Shown: piece after piece, positions 14,349-64,000 of the stretch
How positions within the stretch are numbered: position 1 is the stretch's first letter
Layout: each line of letters opens with the position of its first letter
From: a virus
Taxonomy: Duplodnaviria > Heunggongvirae > Uroviricota > Caudoviricetes > Thumleimavirales > Hafunaviridae
DNA: 64,000 nucleotides
Direction: 5' to 3' (one strand)
Virus record (IMG/VR): IMGVR_UViG_2974793816_000001
Coordinates: 12,760-76,759 of that record
Translations under genes and position numbers: made by a program
The notes under the pieces: model-generated
What the model was told of the DNA's origin: nothing
What the model saw: the letters and a program-made list of their open reading frames with translations, nothing else
Databases searched by the model: none

Positions 14349-15191
14349 CTATTCGTCTCCCCCGTTAGGGAGCATCCGCGACCCCGGCTTGTGTTGCCAG
14401 CGGTCGTTTCGGTACATCGAGATTTCAGATGAGAGTTCGTTCTTTGTTCGCGTTCGCTCCAACTGTTCGTCTTCAGTCATAGGTCGCGTTGTGGCGTCTG
14501 GAAGCATCGCGTCCCTCTTGAATGGAATCACCTGAATAATCGGAGTCCCCTTCGGTACGACTCCCTCGAAGTCACCACCAGTCCACATGAACGGCGCGTT
14601 GACGTTGTTGAAGTAGTTGTCAATATCAACCACTCCCGAGAATGGCGTGAACGGTTGTCCGGGTCGGTTCAGCGGGTTAGTGACGAGTACCGAGTAGCCG
14701 TCTGGAACCTTCATGCACCATTGGTTGTTGAACTTCATAATCGGCCACTCGTGGTTGGGGAACATCTCCCCTCCCACTTGCGAAAGGTTGTGATTCGAGA
14801 TTAGTGGCTCTTGGAACTCCCACTCGTAGTTCACGTATCCGTCCTTCGCCTCGAAGTAGATTTCTCCCGAGAGGGGGATGATGAACCCCATCGTCATTGC
14901 CTCCATGAACGGAGCGCAACGCTTGACTGTGGAGCGGCTAATTCCTTCTCTGGTATTCGTTGAGCCAAACTCGCCGTCGTTGGCGGTGTATTGGCCGAGC
15001 TTCTTGTACCAGTCCGGCAGAACCTTGTTCGCCGGGATGGGTTCGGGAATCGCGCCGTACAGTTCTTCGTCGGTCACGAACTCGATGAGCTGGTCTTCTT
15101 CCGGTTCTTCTTCTGCTGGCGAGCCGTCAAGTCGAACCTTGTTAGAGAGGTCACTAACGGCGTCGGTTACACTCGAAAAATCCATCTTCAC
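14349..15191 (-). CDS. hypothetical protein (280 aa)
   Basis: Acidic ORF. A TATA-like TCTTTAAGTCC sits about 28 nt upstream of the start, consistent with a leaderless transcript. Confidence 0.45.
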   Translation of the reverse strand: MKMDFSSVTDAVSDLSNKVRLDGSPAEEEPEEDQLIEFVTDEELYGAIPEPIPANKVLPDWYKKLGQYTANDGEFGSTNTREGISRSTVKRCAPFMEAMTMGFIIPLSGEIYFEAKDGYVNYEWEFQEPLISNHNLSQVGGEMFPNHEWPIMKFNNQWCMKVPDGYSVLVTNPLNRPGQPFTPFSGVVDIDNYFNNVNAPFMWTGGDFEGVVPKGTPIIQVIPFKRDAMLPDATTRPMTEDEQLERTRTKNELSSEISMYRNDRWQHKPGSRMLPNGGDE

Positions 15192-18104: not shown

Positions 18105-21032
18105 TTAGTCCATCATCTCCTTGAGTTCTACCAGCTCGATGAGGAGGTCTACGTAGATTGTCTCAAGGATTTCTTCCATCCGTGTTTCCTCGAACCCGAG
18201 AACAGAGAGGATTGTCTCATCAAGCGTCTTCTTCGGCTCGAATCCATCCCCAAGTTCATCCTCTGCTTCGGGGAAGTGACGCTCCAATGCCGCCGTCTGT
18301 TCGTCGGAAAGGTTATCGGGGTTGACGTTACTCGCCATTTGCTTGACGAGACTCGGAGCCTCCACGTCGTGAACGTCCTCGAAGCAATCCATTAGTAGCT
18401 CCTTGTCCTCGTCGGAGAGCCGGTTCGGGTGGATTGTGTAGAACCGATTTTGCGTGTATTTCCGGTACTTCGTCCAGCCTCCACGACCGGGGACTCGGGT
18501 GAGAAGCATCTGAAGGAGTCCGAATGATGAATCAAACCAGAGTGAGAGAACCTTCGACTCGGCTTCGTTGAGGTCTGAGTGCATCCACATCCGGTGAGAC
18601 ACCCGTGGCTTGCTGGTGAAGTAGACGATGTGGGACGTACCGGGAGCTGTCAAGTCCACCGTCTCTGGAATTGAGGTGTGGGCGGCATTATCGACGATGT
18701 GGGACTCCCACCCATCAGGAATCCCATCTTCTTCTGACAGCGAGAGGAACCTATCGAGTTCATCAAACTCACGGACGACGGTGTGTTCTTCGAGGTCTGT
18801 AATATCGAGCTTCTGTCGGTATGGCTTCCGTAGGAAGTATGGCTCAACTGCATCCCGAGGAACAGTTACCGTCTCTCCTACGTGACGGTGTTTAACCTCC
18901 AACTTGTCCTCGTTCGCTGATTTTACCTGCCATACGTCGCTTTTCCGAAGGTTAGTGTCGGGCGCACCGATACATCCGCCCGTCCACGGGTGACTACTCC
19001 CACCGCGAGTGAGGCCAGCATCGAGGTGCTGTATCTGCGTGAGGTTATCCTCCTGTTCGAGAATATCACCCCATAGCTGGAACAGGGAGTGGTTCTGGAC
19101 TGCGAATGGAGAGAACAAATTGTGAGTGTCCATCTGCTCCCTCGGAACCCGCCAAACCGTAGCGGTGGATGACCCATCCTCGATGGTTTCGACCTCTCCG
19201 GCTTTCTCGTCTTTAAGTTGTTCAGAGACGTTCCGAATCAGGGAGCTATCTACATCTAATCCATCAAGGGAAACGTAGGTCGTGCTTGCATCCTCGGTGT
19301 TCCCCTTCCGGGCGATTATCATTACTTCTCGAAGGTCAGTATCCTCGGAGAAGTTGGGATTGTCTTCTCGTGCGAAAATATACTCAATATCGTAGTCGTT
19401 GAGAAGCATCTCCCGAACGCCGCTGTCGGTGGATTTGTTGAGGACGGTAGCGGGAATGACAGCCGCTATGCGTCCTCCTTCATTGAGGAATTTGTCTGCG
19501 AGATAGAGGAAGTATGAGCAGTAACTCATCTTCCCGTGGATGTGACCCTTGTTGTCTCGTCGGGAGAATCGGTCACGGAGTCGGTCTTTGTATCCGTCAG
19601 CAAATCCTGCGACAGACTCTTGCCGAGTGAAAGGTGGATTCATTATGACGGTATCCATCGTCTTCAGCTCCATCTCCTGACCAATCGCGGCGTCCATTGC
19701 CACGCTACCGGCCTCAATCGCATCCTCGCTCACGTCCGGTTTTTGTCCTTCTGCGAACTCGGAAAGACCTCGTTGTTCGTCTTTTTGTGGTAGAACAAAC
19801 GAGAGAGGGCTGATAGTGCTTCCCGGTGCGAGCTTAGTAGAGTCCTCGATGCCGATATTCACTTCGTCAGTTTCGTATATGGGCGCTTGGAGAGCAAGAT
19901 GGATACAACTCAGGTGAGCCGCGAATGGCATCACGTCAATTCCCGTAATGTCGTCTTCTACGAACTGTTGGTGCATCTTCTCAGTAAATTCGCTATCCAC
20001 CAACGACCGCTTTCGATTGTACGCCGCCGCGAGAAGACTTCCGCTCCCACACGCGGGGTCAAGGACTTTAGCATCAGACGAGTCGATACTGAGGTCAGCG
20101 AGAATCTGTCCCGGCTTGTTCATCGTGTAGTAAGCCGCGACCCGCTTCCTCGCCTCGATGGGGATTAGCTCGTGGAAGACCTTTCCGAGTACGTCGTGCG
20201 TGATTGACTCGGGACGAAGGGCGTAGATAGACTTGATAGCATCAATCAGGATGGTGATGCTGGTTTGTGGCAAGTCCTCCGCAATCCTGAATGAGAATAC
20301 TGGGGTGTAGTCAACTTCGAGTACGAGGTCGAAGTATTCGCTAAGGTCTTTTGGTGAGCCGAGTTTGTCGGGGTCTATCTCGGGGAACTCTTGAGCTGAT
20401 GATAGGACACGGTAGAACGTGATTTGGTTTACGAGAAGGAACCCTGCGGTCTTCTTTGCGGCTTCTCGTTCTTCTTTCCCCTCCGGGGACGCGCCGAGGA
20501 CGTTACGGAACAGGTTTTCTTTTGGTGCGGTTTCCAGTTCCTCATTCAGACGGTACGCCGTCTGTCGAAGGACGGAAACAACCTCGTCCGGGTCGGGTTC
20601 TGGTTTCCGCTCGTTCTTGATGTGCGAATCAAGCCATCGAGGGATTTCGTCCAACGAGAGGCTAACAATATCGGTAGGGGAGTCCCGGCGGAGGAAAGCG
20701 CAGGAGAATTTGTGGCCGCTGAGAACGGACTCTGCTGTATCTGTGAGCCGCGCTTGACCGCCATCCTGTTTCAGTTTTTCCGGGTAGCAGATTAGGAATG
20801 TACCTTCTACCCCGGTGAGCTGGCCGTAGTCTCTCGCCTCTCCGAATCCTTCCCATTTCTTGTTCTCCCATTTCGCTTCACCCACGAAGGTCATTCCGTT
20901 GACCTTGATTTGGAAGTCGGGCTGAGAGCGGGTTCCGGGTGTCGAAATGGAAACCTGCGTAGCGGCATTTACCCCGTTGTCTCGGAGGTAATCTGCCATC
21001 AAGTCGGTTATCCCATCTTCCGTAGCAGACAT
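18105..21032 (-). CDS. Type IIG/IIL restriction-modification enzyme (MmeI-like; PD-ExK nuclease fused to gamma-class N6-adenine methyltransferase and target-recognition domain)
   Basis: 975 aa. N-terminal PD...EAK motif (QPDFQIKVNGMTFVGEAKWE). SAM-binding motif LDPACGSGSLL and catalytic VIMNPPF. About 450 aa of C-terminal target-recognition domain. TATA AATTTATAG about 28 nt upstream of the ATG. Confidence 0.65.
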   Translation of the reverse strand: MSATEDGITDLMADYLRDNGVNAATQVSISTPGTRSQPDFQIKVNGMTFVGEAKWENKKWEGFGEARDYGQLTGVEGTFLICYPEKLKQDGGQARLTDTAESVLSGHKFSCAFLRRDSPTDIVSLSLDEIPRWLDSHIKNERKPEPDPDEVVSVLRQTAYRLNEELETAPKENLFRNVLGASPEGKEEREAAKKTAGFLLVNQITFYRVLSSAQEFPEIDPDKLGSPKDLSEYFDLVLEVDYTPVFSFRIAEDLPQTSITILIDAIKSIYALRPESITHDVLGKVFHELIPIEARKRVAAYYTMNKPGQILADLSIDSSDAKVLDPACGSGSLLAAAYNRKRSLVDSEFTEKMHQQFVEDDITGIDVMPFAAHLSCIHLALQAPIYETDEVNIGIEDSTKLAPGSTISPLSFVLPQKDEQRGLSEFAEGQKPDVSEDAIEAGSVAMDAAIGQEMELKTMDTVIMNPPFTRQESVAGFADGYKDRLRDRFSRRDNKGHIHGKMSYCSYFLYLADKFLNEGGRIAAVIPATVLNKSTDSGVREMLLNDYDIEYIFAREDNPNFSEDTDLREVMIIARKGNTEDASTTYVSLDGLDVDSSLIRNVSEQLKDEKAGEVETIEDGSSTATVWRVPREQMDTHNLFSPFAVQNHSLFQLWGDILEQEDNLTQIQHLDAGLTRGGSSHPWTGGCIGAPDTNLRKSDVWQVKSANEDKLEVKHRHVGETVTVPRDAVEPYFLRKPYRQKLDITDLEEHTVVREFDELDRFLSLSEEDGIPDGWESHIVDNAAHTSIPETVDLTAPGTSHIVYFTSKPRVSHRMWMHSDLNEAESKVLSLWFDSSFGLLQMLLTRVPGRGGWTKYRKYTQNRFYTIHPNRLSDEDKELLMDCFEDVHDVEAPSLVKQMASNVNPDNLSDEQTAALERHFPEAEDELGDGFEPKKTLDETILSVLGFEETRMEEILETIYVDLLIELVELKEMMD

Positions 21033-21530
21033 TGGATACTTCGTGATTTGGAGGTCGGGACTATAAATTATGTCACAGAGACATACCGGAGTGAGAAATC
21101 ACCTCGATGCGTCTGTTCACGAAAAGATTTCTTCGTGAGAAACGTCGCCGTTGTGTTGACGCTCTTTCTCCCACTCGATTTCTCCTTCGACTTTCCCGAA
21201 GATTTCCGAGGCGATGGTGCGGTCTTCGTAGTCGCGGTCTGGATTGTCCTTGATTTGCTCCAACTCGTGTTCCAAAAACGCGAGGTGTTTTGGGGACAAT
21301 TGCATATAAAGAACCACACACCGGGGGGTTATAAAACGGGGGGTAGTGATTTGGACTTCATTTCCCATCACTCGGTTGTGGAAACGGGGTGGTACACGCA
21401 CGGCATACGGCCCTATACCCTCCTGTTTTTTATAAGTAGGATTGGTAGTAGAGTGTAGAGAAGCACGCAGAACGGGATGTTCCCGGCAAAGGTAGCCGCT
21501 TTCAGGGCCGAAGGCCTCCTCGGTAAAGCG

Positions 21531-21577
21531 CGTCCTTGGTAAGGACGAGACCGGGGGTTCAAATCCCCCCTCAGGCT
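21531..21577 (+). other. 3' fragment of tRNA-Thr(GGT) (anticodon arm + T arm + acceptor 3' strand); putative attP core
   Basis: CGTCC-TTGGTAA-GGACG anticodon arm, GGGGG-TTCAAAT-CCCCC T arm, CTCAGGC acceptor strand. No complementary 5' acceptor strand or D arm upstream. Adjacent to the integrase. Confidence 0.5.
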
Positions 21578-27863: not shown

Positions 27864-27918
27864 CCTCACTCTAATAGACGTGGAGCAAGGACTTAAAGAC
27901 TTCTATTTGAGTCTTTAG
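27864..27918 (+). promoter_or_regulatory. family-1 repeat element between the polB 3' end and the thyX operon start
   Basis: CCTCACTCTAATAGACGTGGAGCAAGGACTTAAAGACTTCTATTTGAGTCTTTAG. In reverse orientation the TATA core lies about 60 nt upstream of the micro-ORF ATG. Confidence 0.45.
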
Positions 27919-30506
27919 CAGAACGCGGCCAGCCCGGTTTGGCTCTGACCTTCAATCGCGGCGTCAACGTCAATGTCCACCGCTTCGAGGATGTCCACCA
28001 TCGGGTTGCGAACGAGCGTGTCTTGCATCCGCTTCACGTCCACGGTGAGCTGGTCACGGAGGTCGTCCAACTGCGCCCCCCGTTCGTATCCAATCACATC
28101 GAGCGTGTCTTCTCCGAGCGTCGTGTGCTTGAGGTAGACCCGCTTGACCGTGTTCCCCTTCCCGAAGTTACAGTCCTTGATGAACTTGTTAGCGTAGAAC
28201 GCCGCTCGGGGCGAAGCGCCCTTCGGCGTCCCGTCAGACCACGAGTAGTCTTCAAGCTCTTTTCCAAGGCCGCCGGGGATTCCGATGAGGTCGAAGTCCG
28301 GGTTCGAGGCGTCGATGCGCTCGGCTCCCTCTCGGATGATGCGGCGAATCTCGTCTTGAGAGCCACCACGAACAATCGTCTCCAGCGTCTCCCGCTGAAC
28401 TTCCTTGGTGAGCTGAGCCGTGTTCGCCTTCTTACACGGGTAGCCGGAGATGGAGAGCTTGCCCTTCCCGTCCTTGATTTGGGCGTCGTAGTCCATCCCC
28501 TCGTCCCACACCTTCACGTAGGCGTAGAACTTCTTTTGCCCGGACATGAAGAAGTGAGAGGCGTACATCTCGATTTCAATGTCGAACCGGCACGGGTCGG
28601 TCGGCATCCCGTACTCGGCGGCGAGGTCAACGTACACCTCGTTGTTCAGCGTGTCCGTAATTGCGTCAGCGGCTTCGAGGCACTCTCGCTGATTCATCGA
28701 GCTGTCAAACTCGATATAGTTTGAGTCGGTGTCGCCATATGCCACATTAGCGATACTTTCCTCGTCCACGTACTTCGCAGTACGCTTAATCACCGCCTGC
28801 CCCGTAAGGGTGACAGCGGCGGCAATATCGGCGTCGTAGAGGAAGAACCGAACCCACCCAAGAACGCCGTAGATGCTGTTAACTATCGTCTTCCTGACAC
28901 TATACTCCTCGGCCCACTTCGACTTCTCCTCGGCGCTCAGCGAGTCGTCCTTCTTCATCTCGCCAGCGTGTTCCTTGAGGCGGAGAGCTTCGTCCACCAG
29001 TTCGCGGAACACGCCGTCGTAATCGAGTCGGAAGTAAACGTCGTTGGCCGCCTTCGCCACCGGAACGAGGTCGCCGCCTTCCTCCAGAACCGCGTAGAGG
29101 CCGTCGTCGTGTTCCTCCACGTAGAGCGGGTCAACCTTCGTCTCCGGGCTGGCGTTCAGCATCCAGAGCGTGTTCGGATACAGGCTTGCCAAGTCGATTC
29201 CGACGACGTTCTCCTTGAGGCCGTTGAAGGCGTCGAACACAAACGCTCCGTCGTAACTCCCGGTATCCTCGGGTTCGGTAGCCGTTGGCCCGGCATAGCC
29301 CTCCGTGTGTAGCTTCCGGCGAATCATCATCTCGATGAACTCGTTGTTCGCCGTGGTCTGCTCGAAGTCCAGACCAATCGTGTCACGGAGCGCCTTCTTG
29401 AACGCGAGGACGTTCGCGGCTTCGTTGATACCGACCGTGAGGAAAACGTCCTTCGTGTTGTAGTTGAGGAACTTGCGGGTGTTCTCCGAATACAGCTCGT
29501 AGAATCCCTTTTCCGTGTGTTCAATCTTCGCGTCTTCCAACTCCATCTGAGCGGCGTTGTCCAGCGCCCCGCTGACCTTCGTGAACTTGGTGTCCTTCCA
29601 AGCGTCCATCAGGTCGTAGCAGGTGCGTCCCTGAATCGTCGGGCCGCCGTACCCGGTGTAGGCGTTCCCGGTGCGGGAGAGGCGGTCAGCGTTGACACCG
29701 CGCTCTTTCATCCGCTCGATAACGAACGGGGTGTCGAACCCGTTGCTGTTCCACCCAACCACGAGGTCGGCGTCGATTTCCTGAACGTACTTGGCGAAGG
29801 AAGTGAGCATCTTCCGCTCATCCGGCTCGAACTTGAGCTGGCTGAGGTGTTCGAGGCCGAGGTCTTCCGGGTGGCTCACTTCATCGAGGTTGGTGTCGGG
29901 GAAGCGTTCCCCAAGCCCGTGACCGTCGAGGTCGATGAACCCAACGTATTCGTCTCGGTAGTTGTCGTGAGCGACGATGGAGAGGATACGCGCCTGTCCG
30001 TAGTCGGGAAAGCCCTCTCCCCGGTCGTCCGTCTCAATGTCGAACGTCAGAACACGGGGCGGGGCGTCCATCTCCACCGGCTCAATCTCATCGGGAGTGA
30101 CCCGACTCGATGGGACTCGAACGCCGGTCTTGATACCGAGGTCGATACGAAGCCGGTCGGTGTAGTCCACGTCGGCTTCCCACGACTTCGAGAAGAACGA
30201 GGCGACCTCGCCCATCTTCTTCGGGTTGTTGACGATAACCTTCACCAGCTCGTCGCCGTCAACGAGGCCGGTCTTGTCGGTGTCAGCGTACCCTTCGAGG
30301 TAGTCGTTGTCGAACGGGTCAACCTTCCCGCGTTCCTCGGCGGGGACGTAGAAGTAGGCGGGGAAGTTCTCCACCGTAACGGAGTCAGACTTCCCGGCTT
30401 CGGTTCGCCCGAACAGCTTGACTTTCGGGGTGTAATCCTCGTAGACCAGTTCGGTGTTAGTGATGTAGATTTCCTTCATTTCAAATGAGGCAGGCGCTCC
30501 ATCCAC
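27915..30506 (-). CDS. polB: family-B DNA polymerase
   Basis: 863 aa with the YGDTDS polymerase motif and an exonuclease domain. The first ATG (MKEIYIT...) is near 30480. Confidence 0.9.
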   Translation of the reverse strand: MDGAPASFEMKEIYITNTELVYEDYTPKVKLFGRTEAGKSDSVTVENFPAYFYVPAEERGKVDPFDNDYLEGYADTDKTGLVDGDELVKVIVNNPKKMGEVASFFSKSWEADVDYTDRLRIDLGIKTGVRVPSSRVTPDEIEPVEMDAPPRVLTFDIETDDRGEGFPDYGQARILSIVAHDNYRDEYVGFIDLDGHGLGERFPDTNLDEVSHPEDLGLEHLSQLKFEPDERKMLTSFAKYVQEIDADLVVGWNSNGFDTPFVIERMKERGVNADRLSRTGNAYTGYGGPTIQGRTCYDLMDAWKDTKFTKVSGALDNAAQMELEDAKIEHTEKGFYELYSENTRKFLNYNTKDVFLTVGINEAANVLAFKKALRDTIGLDFEQTTANNEFIEMMIRRKLHTEGYAGPTATEPEDTGSYDGAFVFDAFNGLKENVVGIDLASLYPNTLWMLNASPETKVDPLYVEEHDDGLYAVLEEGGDLVPVAKAANDVYFRLDYDGVFRELVDEALRLKEHAGEMKKDDSLSAEEKSKWAEEYSVRKTIVNSIYGVLGWVRFFLYDADIAAAVTLTGQAVIKRTAKYVDEESIANVAYGDTDSNYIEFDSSMNQRECLEAADAITDTLNNEVYVDLAAEYGMPTDPCRFDIEIEMYASHFFMSGQKKFYAYVKVWDEGMDYDAQIKDGKGKLSISGYPCKKANTAQLTKEVQRETLETIVRGGSQDEIRRIIREGAERIDASNPDFDLIGIPGGLGKELEDYSWSDGTPKGASPRAAFYANKFIKDCNFGKGNTVKRVYLKHTTLGEDTLDVIGYERGAQLDDLRDQLTVDVKRMQDTLVRNPMVDILEAVDIDVDAAIEGQSQTGLAAFC

Positions 30507-30600
30507 AGTTCAGGCACGTTTCACAACCGCCCTGAGGGGCGATTCGGGGGCTATCACATCCACACGGTGCGGCTTGCTGGTGACTCTTGTTCTGGTTCAT
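30484..30600 (-). CDS. 39-aa zinc-ribbon micro-protein coupled to polB
   Basis: Not in the ORF track. MNQNKSHQQAAPCGCDSPRIAPQGGCETCLNCGWSACLI. Stop lies 1 nt before the polB ATG. Its ATG overlaps the upstream stop (ATGA). Confidence 0.3.
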
Positions 30601-31070
30601 CGTGATTTGGTGATTGAAACTTCTGACCGCGACCACGACGTGTTCGCCGTGTTTTCCGGTGCGACTCGCTGTACGTCCTCGAATCCAGAGCGATTGCGCT
30701 GAATCCGGCTCTCCCCCTCGATGATGGTATTCGCTTCGGGGTCGTAGGCGACCATATCTCCGTTCAGGAAAGCCGCCGTGTCGTACTCGATTACTCGGGA
30801 GTCGTCCCGCTCGATGATGAACACGGTCTTGACCCCCATCCCCTTGACTCGGGAGAGAATATCCTCGGAGATTGCGTAGCCAGCGTACTTTCGGAAGTAG
30901 TGCTGGTCGGCGTCTCCCTTCCCGTGTCGGTTCCGGGGGAAGGTAGCAACGCGACCTCGGTGGCTATCCTCCCCGAAGTGACCGATTAGAACATCGGATT
31001 TCAGTATCGGTGCGACGAGCTGAACATTCGGTGCTGGTGTTTCGGCGTAGTCGTGTAGTGTGCTACTCAT
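30597..31070 (-). CDS. hypothetical protein (157 aa)
   Basis: First gene of a coupled trio with the zinc-ribbon micro-ORF and polB. Confidence 0.4.
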   Translation of the reverse strand: MSSTLHDYAETPAPNVQLVAPILKSDVLIGHFGEDSHRGRVATFPRNRHGKGDADQHYFRKYAGYAISEDILSRVKGMGVKTVFIIERDDSRVIEYDTAAFLNGDMVAYDPEANTIIEGESRIQRNRSGFEDVQRVAPENTANTSWSRSEVSITKSR

Positions 31071-31251: not shown

Positions 31252-32166
31252 TTAGAGATACGCCGGGGACTCTCCCCGATACTCGTCTTTCCACTCAGCG
31301 TAGCTGAGCGTGTCGTCGCGGTAGAAATACTCCCGACCGGGGAACGGGTGTTCCTCGTTCGGCCCGATACACATTTCCTCCCGAGAGGGAGGACGGGCCT
31401 TTCGCTCGGGTTCAAGAAGTGACGGTGCTTGTGGGTGTTCGACCTCCCGCCGTCGCCGGTTCAGGAACGCAGAGTCAACGCGGTCTTCTTTGTTCCAAGA
31501 TTTCAGGACGTTCTCCATCGACCGCTCGATGCGGTCATAGTAGTTGTAGCCGTCCTCTCCCCACTTGTCTCCCTGCCACACGTCTCCGAATTGGGCCGCT
31601 TTCAGGGGAGAGGCGGTGTCCACGGAGTGAACAGGAACGTAGTGGGACAGCTCGAACTGGCGGTGTGGGCTTCCACCGAGGATATGAACACTCCGGCAGT
31701 TACGGTACTCCCATACCGGCCACGGTACACCACCAAAGCGGTCTTGAGCGGGGAGTCCGACGCGGAACCGGGAGGGAACACGGTCGGGTTTGACGCCCTT
31801 CGGAACCACGATAACAACGTCTGCGTGGCGACGGAGACGGTCAGCTTTAGCAAGAATAGAAGTGAGGTCAGACTCGTCTCCAATATCAGGCGCAACAGCA
31901 TATTTTGGCTTCTCGCGTTTCACCACATCGAGGTGGGCTTTCCACTTCTGCTCGAACGAGAGGTCGTCCTGTAAGAACGGCCAATCGACGAACTCCACCG
32001 GAATCTCCCTCGGTGGTCGGGCTTTCGTACTCTCCATCCCCACGAGCGAGCCACCACGGTAGGCCGCTCGGGGCATATCTTCTCCGCCGCAGGACGTGAC
32101 TATAACATCAACATCGTTTCGTGAGCTGGTGCTGTTGCTGGTCGGTGCGTACTCGGTGAGACTCAT
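31252..32166 (-). CDS. tRNA-guanine transglycosylase-family protein (DpdA-like, putative 7-deazaguanine DNA transglycosylase)
   Basis: RSVHILGGSPHRQ...VHSVDTASP aligns with the RPVHLFGAGHP...VDLFDSASY segment that I recall from archaeal/bacterial TGT enzymes. An N-terminal VTSCGGE segment resembles the TDSGG box. Confidence 0.45.
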   Translation of the reverse strand: MSLTEYAPTSNSTSSRNDVDVIVTSCGGEDMPRAAYRGGSLVGMESTKARPPREIPVEFVDWPFLQDDLSFEQKWKAHLDVVKREKPKYAVAPDIGDESDLTSILAKADRLRRHADVVIVVPKGVKPDRVPSRFRVGLPAQDRFGGVPWPVWEYRNCRSVHILGGSPHRQFELSHYVPVHSVDTASPLKAAQFGDVWQGDKWGEDGYNYYDRIERSMENVLKSWNKEDRVDSAFLNRRRREVEHPQAPSLLEPERKARPPSREEMCIGPNEEHPFPGREYFYRDDTLSYAEWKDEYRGESPAYL

Positions 32167-40382: not shown

Positions 40383-41339
40383 CTACATCCGGTTCTCAAT
40401 CTCGGCAATCACCGCATCGAGGTCGTACTCGGCGTCACCGACTTCACCAGCGACGAGCTGTTCGACGTTCTCCGGGTTCGTCTCACCCGTGTTCGCCATG
40501 AAGTCGATAATCTGGTCGGCGGCCTGCGGAACACCCTCAGGAAGCTCCTCGTCGGAGTCGTCGCCGCCACCGAGCGAGCCACCCGAGCTACCGGAGGACT
40601 CGTCGGAGTCGTCGCCGTCGCCGCCCGAGTTGGCGATGGTGATACCAGCGAACGTCTCAGCATCAAGAACCTTCGCGTCGGTGTATTCCACGTAGTCGTC
40701 TTCGCTCTCCGCGTCGTCCGGCAGGAAGCCGTCCTTGTAGTAGGAGAGGATGATACGGCGGCCTTCGAGGTCGTCGCGGAGTTCGAGGGCGTCGTCGTTC
40801 AGCCAGTTGTAGTTGTCGTCCTTGTCGTCCACCACGTCGTGACCGGCAGGCGTGATGACCTTGGCGAAGGTGCGGTTCTTCGTCCCGTTCGAGAGCCACA
40901 GCGTACAGTTGCCGAGGCTCACCGGGTCGTCGTCCTCACGCACGGCCTCCTGAAGCTTGTACGTGAAGTTGTTGCTACCGAACTGCTCGTTGTGACGGGA
41001 GGGAACTTCGTCAACCCCCACATCCTCGGTCGGAGCGCCGTTGTCGTCGGTGGCGAACCACGTATCCCAACCGAACACCTTGATGGTGTCGTCGGACTCG
41101 TCGCCCGGCGACCGCTCCATCACGATGCCGTCGATTACCTCCACGTCGTCGGCGTCCACGATGAGGGACTGACCGTAGGACGACCCGGTGTATTCACCGA
41201 GACGCCCAATCTTGAACGAGATGAAGGCGTAGTTGTTCATCTTCAGGGAGATACGCTCCTCGAAGTCGCCGCTCGCGCCGCTGTTGTTCGTGTTGCCGCC
41301 GCTGTTGTAGTCGGTGTCGAAAAGGCTCATTTGTTGAAG
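40383..41339 (-). CDS. hypothetical acidic protein
   Basis: The ORF-track start at 41561 would run through tRNA-Tyr. Internal Met MSLFDTDYN near 41339 is the plausible start. Confidence 0.35.
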   Translation of the reverse strand, partial: LQQMSLFDTDYNSGGNTNNSGASGDFEERISLKMNNYAFISFKIGRLGEYTGSSYGQSLIVDADDVEVIDGIVMERSPGDESDDTIKVFGWDTWFATDDNGAPTEDVGVDEVPSRHNEQFGSNNFTYKLQEAVREDDDPVSLGNCTLWLSNGTKNRTFAKVITPAGHDVVDDKDDNYNWLNDDALELRDDLEGRRIILSYYKDGFLPDDAESEDDYVEYTDAKVLDAETFAGITIANSGGDGDDSDESSGSSGGSLGGGDDSDEELPEGVPQAADQIIDFMANTGETNPENVEQLVAGEVGDAEYDLDAVIAEIENRM

Positions 41340-41411
41340 TAGGTTTCTCTGGTTCTGTTTGTCACTCGTTTCGGAGCCAACTACGGCATAGGTGTTTTCG
41401 CCGTAGAAAAG

Positions 41412-41480
41412 TCTGGACGGACGGAATCGAACCGCCCTTGGGAGGTTTACAGCCTCCGCGTTCGCCTTGAACACGTCCAG
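41412..41480 (-). tRNA. tRNA-Tyr (anticodon GTA)
   Basis: CTGGACG/CGTCCAG acceptor stem with a C1-G72 pair, which I recall as typical of archaeal tRNA-Tyr. GGAGG-CTGTAAA-CCTCC anticodon arm. GGCGG-TTCGATT-CCGTC T arm. The D arm is short. Confidence 0.65.
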
Positions 41481-41562
41481 AAAAGGGCCTATGATTGGGG
41501 GTGTCCACACCGCGTGAACGGGAGTGGCTACAAAGGTACGGCCAGCACCTCGCGTAGCCAAG

Positions 41563-41635
41563 CGCCGAGGGGAGGACTCGAACCTCCGACCACCGTGTTA
41601 ACAGCACGGCGCTCTACCAACTGAGCTACCTCGGC
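41563..41635 (-). tRNA. tRNA-Asn (anticodon GTT)
   Basis: Full cloverleaf: GCCGAGG/CCTCGGC acceptor, GCTC/GAGC D stem, CCGTG-CTGTTAA-CACGG anticodon arm, GGAGG-TTCGAGT-CCTCC T arm. Confidence 0.85.
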
Positions 41636-42781: not shown

Positions 42782-42852
42782 TGCGACCGGAGGGAATCGA
42801 ACCCCCGTTGGCGGCTTGGAAGGCCGCCGTGATACCACTACACTACGGTCGC
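42782..42852 (-). tRNA. tRNA-Gly (anticodon TCC)
   Basis: GCGACCG/CGGTCGC acceptor, GCGGC-CTTCCAA-GCCGC anticodon arm, TTCGATT T loop. Confidence 0.85.
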
Positions 42853-43924: not shown

Positions 43925-43999
43925 CGGAGACGATGGGATTTGAACCCACGCGCTTTCGGTTAGAAGCCGAACGCTCTGTCCGAGCTGAGCTACGTCCCC
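43925..43999 (-). tRNA. tRNA-Arg (anticodon TCT)
   Basis: GGGGACG/CGTCTCC acceptor (one G-U pair), GCTC/GAGC D stem, TTCGG-CTTCTAA-CCGAA anticodon arm, GTGGG-TTCAAAT-CCCAT T arm. Confidence 0.85.
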
Positions 44000-62135: not shown

Positions 62136-64000
62136 TCACTACTGTCGTGGTTTGCTTAGCGAGGGTCTTAGACCCTCAAAGCGTCAATCCTCGTCAATTC
62201 GAGGTAGCTTCCGCTGGTTCCTTTACGTCTATCCTTCCCCGCCCCTTACGGGACGGGCCGAACATACTAACGAGCGTTTTAAACGTGACACTCATCCCTT
62301 TAGGCCGAATACTGTTGTCACTATGGCAGGGTCATCCTCAATTCTCAAAGAGTCTTTCGCGTTAATCGCTATGAGCTAAGCTCTTGACTACTATGTTCGT
62401 CGTCCTACGAACCTGTTTATGGCATAGACTTTCAGACCATAGGCTAAGCGCCTATTGTTTTAACCGTAACCGCAACCGAAAGTGGGTGGACTTCACATTT
62501 CCATAGCTGTCGCTAAGGACAGCCGGTTCGACAGTTTCGAGGCATTAATGCTCGATGTGTCTATTTTCGTCACTCTTTGCCCTAAGGGTCGCTCTTTGTT
62601 CGGGCCATACTCCCCCTGTTACCTGAAAATACACTCCGGGGCCGTCTCCCCGGTTTCGGGCCGTCACTACGAAACGGGCCGCTTTCGCGGGCCGGTTCCG
62701 TTCGGGCCGTACTTACGACGTAACGCCGGGAAACCCGTTCGGGGCCGGGCAGGGTTTTCACCTATGGTCACAAACCATAGTGTGCCTAACTACCCGGAGG
62801 GTTTCCTTTGTCGTTTCAGGGGCAGGGGCCGGTTTCACGGTTACAAACCGTTTCGCCGGGCCGCCCCTACTTTCCCGTCCCGGCCCCTATGGGCCGGTTC
62901 CGTCTCCCCGTACTAACACGGGCCTATGTGGTTTTGGGTCGTTTCGCACTATGTTCCGGTTTTAAACCCCGTCCGTGGGGATTAGCGATTAATTCGCCGG
63001 TATTCGTACTGATAGGTTACTGATACCCGGCCCCGGTATCCACACCGGGGTTTCCGGCCCCTAAGGGCCGTTTCACCGTGAAAGGCGGGCCGTCTCCGGC
63101 CCGTCTCCTACATTTCGTAAGGGTCAATTCGGCCCCGGTTCCGTCTCTCCGGGCGGCCCGTAACAGGGGCCGGAACCGGAGAAACCTACCCGAGACGTAC
63201 TTACCCGCCCCCGTCCGTTCGGGGGAGACGTAACGGTAATTCCGTCGTAAGGTGGCAACGAACTAACCAAAACCACCAACGCCGGGCGCATATGGCAACG
63301 CCGACGGAAAGCGGGAATTAAACCGCTTTTCCGGGGTTTCGGGGCCTTTTCCGCCGGGGAGTGTATCCCCCGGCCCATTTCAGGGGGCCGCCGTCCCGGT
63401 TAACATCAAACCGGGGCGGGCCGCCTTTCGCCGGGCGACATTCAACCAGAATACCCGGTTTCATATAAACCCGTCGATTCGGATTAGTATATAAAGACGG
63501 GAAACACCGGAAACGCCGAACGTGAAGGGTACAAGCCTCGATGCGGTAAAACACGGTAAACGGAAAAGAGGGAGATATACCCGAATATGGGTAAGGGTAG
63601 GGGGCCGGAGAGACGGGCCGGGACGGGGAGAGACGGGGAGAGACGGGACGGACGGGACGGACGGGGAGTAAACGGGGCGTACTTACCGATTCCGCCGGTT
63701 TCAGGGGCCGGAGAGATACCGGATAACGGCCCGTATGGACGGCCCGAGAGACGGGACGAGAGACGGCCCGCGCGGGACGGGGGCAGGGGGCCGGGCCGTA
63801 TCGAGAGACGGACGGGCAGGGACGGGCAGGGACGGGCCGGGGGCCGGGGCAGGGGCAGGGAACCAGCTACGAACAGGCAGGCACGCCGCCCGCGCGTAGG
63901 GCGGTCAGCAACGTACATATCCGAGGGTACAAGCCCCCACGACGGGACGGGACGGGGGCCGGTTAGAACATTGAGTGTCTTTCCGCACGCACAGTTTAGT
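62136..64000. repeat. non-coding, repeat-rich region (candidate genome terminus / origin / packaging region)
   Basis: 1.8 kb without credible ORFs. Dense short direct repeats (GAGAGACGG, GACGGGACG, GGGCAGGGACGG), GGGCCG/CCGG words and twin hairpins CTATGGTcacaaACCATAG and ACGGTTacaaACCGT. Confidence 0.5.

Follow-up and report, generated by a model that had tools for sequence, protein, structure and literature searches.

The described systems closest to the gene considered here include the DpdA of Salmonella Montevideo, whose active site uses Asp256 as nucleophile and Asp95 as general acid/base (D256A or D95A abolishes activity), with Asp130 and His181 for reading the base and Phe99 and Leu236 for stacking on it (PMC10164549), as well as HVTV1_69, the product of gene 69 of HVTV-1, on which Hutinet et al. 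2023 (NAR 51:9214, PMC10516641) based the renaming of DUF6610 as DpdA4. By HHpred, HVTV1_69 matched DUF6610 at 100% and the tRNA-guanine transglycosylase (TGT) family PF01702 at 92.5%, and the Halorubrum phage HF2 was named as a singleton DpdA4 carrier (PMC10516641). HVTV-1 DNA contains dPreQ1 at about 30% of G (PMC6884629). The present study deals with gp54 from Halorubrum tailed virus 10 (HRTV-10). This HF1/HF2-like myovirus belongs to the Hafunaviridae and has a 76.8-kb genome; the window, i.e., the whole stretch of DNA that was analysed, comprises the final 64,000 bases of this genome (MZ334496/NC_062758; window position = record position - 12759). The gp54 protein (UBF19638.1, HRTV-10_gp54) is annotated as 'hypothetical protein', and the 2021 paper describing HRTV-10 did not recognise it. 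A preliminary description of the window had proposed a lone DpdA-like transglycosylase that could insert host preQ0 into viral DNA, which is a correct re-derivation of a prediction published in 2023, under the name DpdA4, for the sister virus HF2. The finding is no new kind of system, the prediction being already in print; this study contributes a residue-level correspondence with the active site of the solved DpdA, evidence for a wider family, and the repeated coexistence of DUF6610 with canonical DpdA. The gene and its parts are as follows.

31252..32166, minus strand: gp54 open reading frame (ORF), 304 amino acids plus stop, ATG start; DUF6610/'DpdA4' family, putative DNA-guanine transglycosylase
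31492..32064, minus strand: DUF6610 core domain, residues 35-225; minimal TIM barrel of 8 strands that has neither the insertions nor the zinc subdomain of TGT
31255..31491, minus strand: C-terminal extension, residues 226-304; conserved PFPGRxYFY motif, modelled at pLDDT of about 80-92

Residues 35-225 of gp54 matched model positions 1-198 of the Pfam family DUF6610 (PF20314) with 212.5 bits (cutoff 27, E=6e-63). HVTV1_69 scored 190.8 bits on the same model and shared 25% identity with gp54 over residues 22-202 (E=1e-6 to 7e-13, tblastn and blastp), and its gene abuts FolE, QueE, QueD, QueC, and QueF. Full-length gp54 orthologs with 88-100% amino-acid identity, all annotated as hypothetical, were found in 41 of the 41 Hafunaviridae (HF1/HF2-like) records of the phage collection, including a syntenic HF2 ortholog at 93% identity; because of this complete distribution, gp54 is a real, conserved gene under selection. 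Other annotation sources added little, as gp54 matched PHROG 16059, with families of 'unknown function' being all that PHROGs returned, and scans with NCBIfam and PADLOC gave nothing informative. An exhaustive profile search extended the DUF6610 family to 768 clusters at 50% identity. The label 'specific to archaeal viruses' is clearly too narrow for this family. Within the family alignment, the PFPGRxYFY extension was confined to the long forms from haloviruses and halophiles and was not present in the short forms of ~200 amino acids.

More distant kinship was sought in structure and in profile comparisons. The AlphaFold2 model of gp54, built from 54 sequences, formed an eight-stranded barrel (pLDDT 90.7, pTM 0.89). 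A Foldseek search of the PDB returned the Zymomonas mobilis TGT at the top (E=5.6e-5), with a TM value of only about 0.45 and other barrels interleaved. Against the viral models of BFVD, the first two matches were DUF6610 proteins, namely a ParB-fused phage protein and the DpdA4 of HCTV-1, followed at E values of about 5e-5 and weaker by proteins annotated as DpdA/TGT in viruses of Sulfolobales, Arthrobacter, Achromobacter, and Mycobacterium and by a phiST protein, with uncharacterised proteins interleaved among them. In addition, a hidden Markov model (HMM) of DpdA2, whose best PDB match was the solved Salmonella DpdA (7ui4), ranked gp54 first among 616 six-frame ORFs of HRTV-10 (E=0.03, 8.6 bits; next 2.3 bits). 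The DUF6610 HMM scored 9.5 bits on the 7ui4 segment containing VH234LLG and SID256STTPL, a value reached by 0 of 2000 shuffles and significant as a single pre-specified comparison, not at database scale.

Several results at the sequence level tell against this kinship. No match of gp54 to Pfam TGT (PF01702) or DpdA (PF23859) was obtained even at E<=10, and searches of PDB sequences with gp54, the DUF6610 profile, and the 57-aa motif segment gave chance matches only, with no TGT or DpdA. The hhalign comparison of the 202-sequence DUF6610 profile with the DpdA2 profile was weak (P=0.002-0.005, probability 7-14%), although the motifs nonetheless aligned in order, and the N-terminal half, which holds the Asp95 and Asp130 equivalents, showed no significant HMM alignment to the Salmonella DpdA. 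Taken together, the earlier assignment to a TGT/DpdA-like family holds as far as Foldseek, the DpdA2 HMM, the motif alignment, and published HHpred results are concerned and finds no echo in the Pfam TGT and DpdA models; the remote relationship is thus supported at the level of sensitive methods only, and gp54 very probably belongs to the TGT/DpdA superfamily. Conceivably, gp54 is in this virus a TIM-barrel enzyme whose chemistry has nothing to do with 7-deazaguanine, such as a DNA glycosylase/lyase or an enzyme of nucleotide metabolism in the service of replication, its likeness to TGT reflecting nothing more than a shared ancient barrel. Such a reading is unlikely, given that the motifs correspond, in order, to those of the DpdA nucleophile and of its base-stacking residues, that Foldseek and the DpdA2 HMM specifically select TGT/DpdA, and that DUF6610 lies within preQ0 operons twice independently.

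For the candidate active site, conservation was counted across 202 DUF6610 sequences, with per-column totals that vary. The positions D61 (197/197), D94 (202/202), H161 and L163 (200/201 each), G164 and G165 (201/201 each), S181 (197/200), and D183 (200/200) were nearly or fully invariant, position 64 was aromatic in 195 of the 197 aligned sequences (F64 in gp54), and gp54 carries all of the family residues D61, D94, H161, L163, G164, G165, S181, and D183. HVTV-1 gp69 and Rinkes gp1, the latter from a Mycobacterium phage, also retain every candidate catalytic residue. The preliminary description had quoted two motifs from a 304-aa protein, and both stand at the codon level in the minus-strand ORF at 31252..32166, as RSVHILGGSPHRQ (H161) and VHSVDTASP (D183), the codons of these two residues having been checked. 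The comparison with TGT drew on the corresponding motifs in E. coli Tgt and in the solved DpdA from Salmonella rather than on the strings quoted earlier for archaeosine TGT (ArcTGT). The motifs in question are listed below.

31975..31986, minus strand: FVD61-W-P-F64 motif, candidate general acid/base Asp and aromatic residue; compare GD95CGAF99 of Salmonella DpdA
31885..31887, minus strand: D94 in AVAPD94I, candidate base-recognition Asp; compare ALD69V of DpdA2 and VSLD130 of Salmonella DpdA
31672..31686, minus strand: VH161-I-L163-G-G motif, equivalent of VH234-L-L236-G of Salmonella DpdA
31606..31626, minus strand: S181-V-D183-T-A-S-P187 motif, candidate nucleophile Asp; compare SID256STTPL of Salmonella DpdA and MFD264CVMP of E. 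coli Tgt

The correspondences at these sites are of graded strength. By motif alignment, the predicted equivalence of D183 with Asp256 and of H161/L163 with His234/Leu236 is significant, and hhalign also placed D183 on D264 of E. coli Tgt (MFDCVMPTRNARNG versus SVDTASPLKAAQFG) and on D168 of DpdA2. For D94, which aligned with D69 of DpdA2 (hhalign P=0.002) and had no significant direct alignment to the Salmonella DpdA, equivalence with Asp130 is proposed by way of DpdA2 D69. The equivalence of D61/F64 with Asp95/Phe99 is likewise proposed, on a low-stringency hhalign alignment only, through D33 of DpdA2 (the HMM comparison was not significant), and the motif there reads VDWPF rather than DSGGF. 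In the gp54 model, strands 3 and 8 have D61 and D183 at their C-terminal ends, and in the Salmonella DpdA the same two strands end in Asp95, just before Ins3, and Asp256, at the start of Ins8 (PMC10164549). In the Z. mobilis TGT, the counterparts of Asp95 and Asp130 are Asp102 (general acid/base) and Asp156 (base recognition). An assignment of H161 as the counterpart of DpdA His181 was considered and dropped, since the 7ui4 numbering gives His234. Furthermore, no cysteine column exceeded 36% conservation among the 202 sequences, and gp54 has cysteines only at positions 26, 157, and 266; with no conserved cysteine there is no TGT-type zinc site, in line with what had been noted from gp54 itself.

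Based on these data, gp54 would be a stripped-down, zinc-free TIM-barrel enzyme of the DpdA4 type, with a core of about 190 residues and expressed alongside the replication genes. Asp183 would attack a flipped-out deoxyguanosine of the double-stranded viral DNA at its C1', releasing guanine and leaving an intermediate in which enzyme and DNA are covalently linked, with Asp61 acting as the general acid/base, Asp94 reading the base edge, and Leu163 and Phe64 stacking on the base; a free 7-deazaguanine base, presumably preQ0 from the host archaeosine pathway, would then resolve the intermediate. The predicted outcome is that some of the G positions would carry dPreQ0 or a derivative of it, and certain restriction systems or other DNA-targeting defences of the host could be weakened as a result. 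The analysis shows for gp54 the family membership, the modelled fold, the conservation of the candidate catalytic residues and their order, the homology to HVTV-1 gene 69, the absence of synthesis genes, and the universal presence in the virus family. The DNA substrate, the base exchange, the preQ0 donor, and the anti-restriction benefit are plausible from the analysis as a whole, and the full scheme, in which gp54 places host preQ0 in viral DNA as a DpdA4-type transglycosylase, is judged somewhat probable.

The supply of the base bears directly on this scheme. No credible FolE, QueE, QueD, QueC, or QueF was found in the 76.8-kb HRTV-10 genome by tblastn with the HVTV-1 proteins, annotation, and Pfam scans of the larger hypothetical proteins, so that the earlier remark that QueC/D/E/FolE genes are not visible extends to the whole genome, and no canonical DpdA or TGT occurs in it either. 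With no synthesis genes in HRTV-10, any 7-deazaguanine must be host-derived. Haloarchaea produce preQ0 for archaeosine. A genome-contig scan with HVTV-1 QueC recovered thaumarchaeal and other non-halophile loci only, with none from Halorubrum. One candidate for QueC, gp72, was rejected: its marginal tblastn match to the C-terminus of HVTV-1 QueC (E=0.016) had no Pfam support, and the resemblance is probably due to chance or to a zinc-ribbon-like element.

40383-41510, minus strand: gp72, 375-aa hypothetical protein; QueC-like match judged chance or zinc-ribbon-type

A number of further observations bear on preQ0 insertion into DNA by gp54, most of them against it. Tests of DpdA4 activity in E. 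coli failed (PMC10516641), and the residue of gp54 equivalent to the base-reading His181 may be K123, which is kept in 194 of 202 sequences. The gp54 gene has no linked 7-deazaguanine synthesis genes, the kind of linkage on which the DpdA4 assignment was founded, and fits the 'singleton' class, as does HF2. Among phages with a lone DpdA, Salmonella phage 7-11 contains dADG at just 0.02% of G, and Mycobacterium phage Orion has no modification because its host lacks the preQ0 pathway. For HVTV-1 itself, a host DpdA was formerly proposed as the source of the modification. Our literature search found no published analysis of HF1-group virion DNA for 7-deazaguanine.

The composition of the genome adds another argument of this kind. 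In HRTV-10, GATC occurred 0 times (about 370 expected), CTAG 0 times (about 146 expected), and TGCA 22 times (80 expected), and 44 of the 64 hexamer palindromes were absent. Palindrome avoidance has been described before for the HF1 group (PMC7230728). Such extreme purging suggests continuing exposure to restriction, which argues against blanket shielding by modification; however, the modified virus HVTV-1 likewise has no GATC in the 18.5 kb examined. The Type IIG enzyme mentioned in the preliminary description as a reason for interest is indeed encoded in the genome, as gp38, with N6_Mtase and Eco57I domains. A link between this enzyme and modification by gp54 is speculative because gp38 has its own N6-adenine methylase domain for self-protection.

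18105..21032, minus strand: gp38, Type IIG-like enzyme with N6_Mtase and Eco57I domains

DUF6610 was also found side by side with canonical DpdA. In Mycobacterium phage Rinkes, gene 1 encodes a ParB+DUF6610 protein and gene 3 a DpdA-like protein, followed by QueC, QueD, QueE, and FolE, which makes Rinkes the second independent linkage of DUF6610 to a preQ0 operon, beside HVTV-1. An uncultured HF1-like contig syntenic with HRTV-10 (L009) carries DUF6610 together with a true DpdA of 262 amino acids (PF23859, 29.1 bits, above threshold), and this extra canonical DpdA occurs in no isolated Hafunaviridae virus. In the 1993-aa protein P0094, both domains lie in one polypeptide.

L004:1-1302 and 1688-2560: Rinkes DUF6610 and DpdA-like genes, respectively
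L009:14229-15017, plus strand: canonical DpdA between PolB and ThyX
L011:625-6606: P0094, 1993 amino acids, DUF6610 and DpdA domain in tandem in one polypeptide

These coexistences count against the simple scheme as well, since with both proteins present in Rinkes, L009, and P0094, DUF6610 may not simply duplicate the job of DpdA; coming from three unrelated cases, they suggest that the two are not redundant. In that event DUF6610 would be a second module of the deazaguanine machinery: it could be a transglycosylase that differs from DpdA in its base or sequence specificity, could pair with DpdA as a heterodimer, in the way that QTRT2 pairs with QTRT1, or could serve as a DNA-loading subunit, and the output of a lone gp54 could differ from textbook dPreQ0 insertion. 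This is possible but doubtful. The three independent co-occurrences speak for it, as does the retention of the candidate catalytic residues in both Rinkes gp1 and HVTV-1 gp69, whereas HVTV-1 is heavily dPreQ1-modified without any other recognisable viral DpdA, which fits the sufficiency of DUF6610, the invariant Asp/His/Asp favour a catalytic protein over a scaffold, and no isolated Hafunaviridae virus has the extra DpdA. More broadly, and with similar reserve, DUF6610 might be more than a fourth variety of DpdA restricted to archaeal viruses, namely a minimal module for base exchange in its own right, free of zinc and widespread (768 clusters, spanning actinophages, haloarchaeal chromosomes, and giant proteins rich in helix-hairpin-helix motifs), that works alongside canonical DpdA where both are present; in HF1-group viruses, where every member keeps it in the replication module and synthesis genes are absent, it might install host-derived 7-deazaguanine at specific sites or catalyse an undescribed base exchange or excision.

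The fusion partners of DUF6610 comprised ParB_N (P0201 and Rinkes gp1), helix-hairpin-helix arrays, DUF6884, GNAT acetyltransferases, and the canonical DpdA domain. These fusions point firmly to DNA and the deazaguanine system. Bacterial DpdA is known to require DpdB, a ParB-like ATPase (PMC10164549). No ParB-like protein is annotated in HRTV-10, the small ORFs not all having been profile-scanned. A search for the ParB-DUF6610 fusion in the characterised phage Rosebush yielded no link, and the full fusion was present in just 3 phage records. Giant proteins of 1,400-3,100 amino acids carried DUF6610 at their start or within (P0088, P0092, P0094, P0100, P0104, P0107, P0131, and P0143), with multiple helix-hairpin-helix DNA-binding motifs, among those scanned with Pfam, in P0092, P0100, P0107, and P0143, and with DUF6884 in P0100, P0107, and the 496-aa P0116. 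In P0055 and P0089, a GNAT acetyltransferase was fused N-terminally to DUF6610; as pure speculation, such a fusion could serve further modification of the inserted base, e.g., acylation of an aminomethyl group. A 359-aa DUF6610 protein (P0065, L007:10001-11080) was located inside an apparent haloarchaeal archaellum/chemotaxis cluster (CheF, archaeal flagellins, FlaC/D/E), an unexpected cellular context with no viral or Que genes nearby.

The fusions also bear on whether DNA or RNA is the substrate. A transglycosylase directed at viral or host tRNAs would agree with the founding members of the superfamily, which are tRNA enzymes, and HRTV-10 encodes five tRNAs (tRNA-Pro, Thr, Asn, Gly, and Arg), while HVTV-1 has a tRNA near its cluster. 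Nevertheless, an RNA-directed gp54 is very improbable: the protein is devoid of the C-terminal/PUA-type tRNA-binding domains and the zinc subdomain of TGT/ArcTGT, the modules fused to its family (helix-hairpin-helix, ParB) bind DNA, the modification of HVTV-1 resides in DNA, and the host ArcTGT should already handle viral tRNAs, given what is established of archaeosine biosynthesis. The tRNA genes inside the window are the following.

21507-21577, 41563-41635, 42782-42852, and 43925-43999: tRNA genes (Thr, Asn, Gly, Arg), four of the five

With respect to its neighbourhood, gp54 lies in a minus-strand replication module with the order Cas4-like PD-(D/E)XK nuclease, five small ORFs, gp54, two small ORFs, PolB, one small ORF, ThyX, and Dcd. 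The placement next to polB given at the outset is correct to within the two small ORFs that separate the genes.

27915..30479, minus strand: PolB, separated from gp54 by two small ORFs

Directly downstream of gp54 is gp52 (157 amino acids, window 30597-31070, minus strand), which had no Pfam match; a 153-aa protein in the uncultured relative L009 (10917-11378) matches it in position, and gp52 is a possible functional partner of gp54. Elsewhere in the window, the 278-aa hypothetical protein gp35 (14349-15185, minus strand) gave a sub-threshold match to DUF6065 (22.1 bits, cutoff 26.6). The linear genome ends in an exact terminal direct repeat of 316 bp, with window positions 63685-64000 (record 76444-76759) identical to record positions 1-316, the left copy lying outside the window.

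If DpdA4-type insertion of host preQ0 by gp54 is true, every HF1/HF2-type haloarchaeal virus would bear an overlooked DNA hypermodification, and the restriction evasion, sequencing signals, and host range of the HF1/HF2 group would need reinterpretation. The group is a classic model, with some members infecting genetically tractable Haloferax; it would also offer the first genetically tractable system for proving the activity of DpdA4, which failed in E. coli.

Compared with known systems, gp54 stands nearest to the DpdA4 proteins. It shares with HVTV1_69 the Pfam DUF6610 match and the invariant Asp/Asp/His/Asp set, and with the HF2 singleton the state of a lone gene without Que genes. HVTV1_69 and gp54 differ in architecture, as the extension is N-terminal and about 134 amino acids long in the former (Pfam match from residue 135) but C-terminal and about 80 long in the latter, and in setting, as HVTV-1 combines adjoining FolE, QueC, QueD, QueE, and QueF genes with known modified DNA, whereas HRTV-10 has none of these genes. 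The lone-DpdA phages, namely Salmonella 7-11 and HRTV-29 (proposed by Liu et al. 2021, PMC8651126), resemble gp54 in having a transglycosylase without synthesis genes that would draw on a host pool, but they carry canonical DpdA where HRTV-10 carries DUF6610.

The Salmonella Montevideo DpdA (PDB 7UI4, PMC10164549) is considerably larger, with 413 amino acids, Ins1-3, and a 128-residue Ins8, in contrast to the gp54 core of about 190 amino acids without insertions; it also needs the ParB-like ATPase DpdB and ATP, whereas HRTV-10 has no annotated ParB-like gene and gp54 falls below the Pfam DpdA threshold. In size, gp54 is nearer to DpdA2 (the Vibrio phage nt-1 type, including the mycobacteriophage 'DpdA-like tRNA-guanine transglycosylase', e.g., Rinkes gp3) at about 290 amino acids, and the D-D-H-D spacing in this comparison is similar (36/81/18 vs 33/67/22). 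DpdA2 and DUF6610 are alike in having no Pfam TGT match, although DpdA2 keeps the canonical DSGAF where DUF6610 has VDWPF, and both coexist in Rinkes. Finally, the tRNA TGTs (bacterial TGT and ArcTGT, PF01702) have the modelled fold and the nucleophile motif in common with gp54, which differs from them in having no zinc site and no C-terminal/PUA domains, in being half their size, and in its predicted substrate, which is DNA instead of tRNA.

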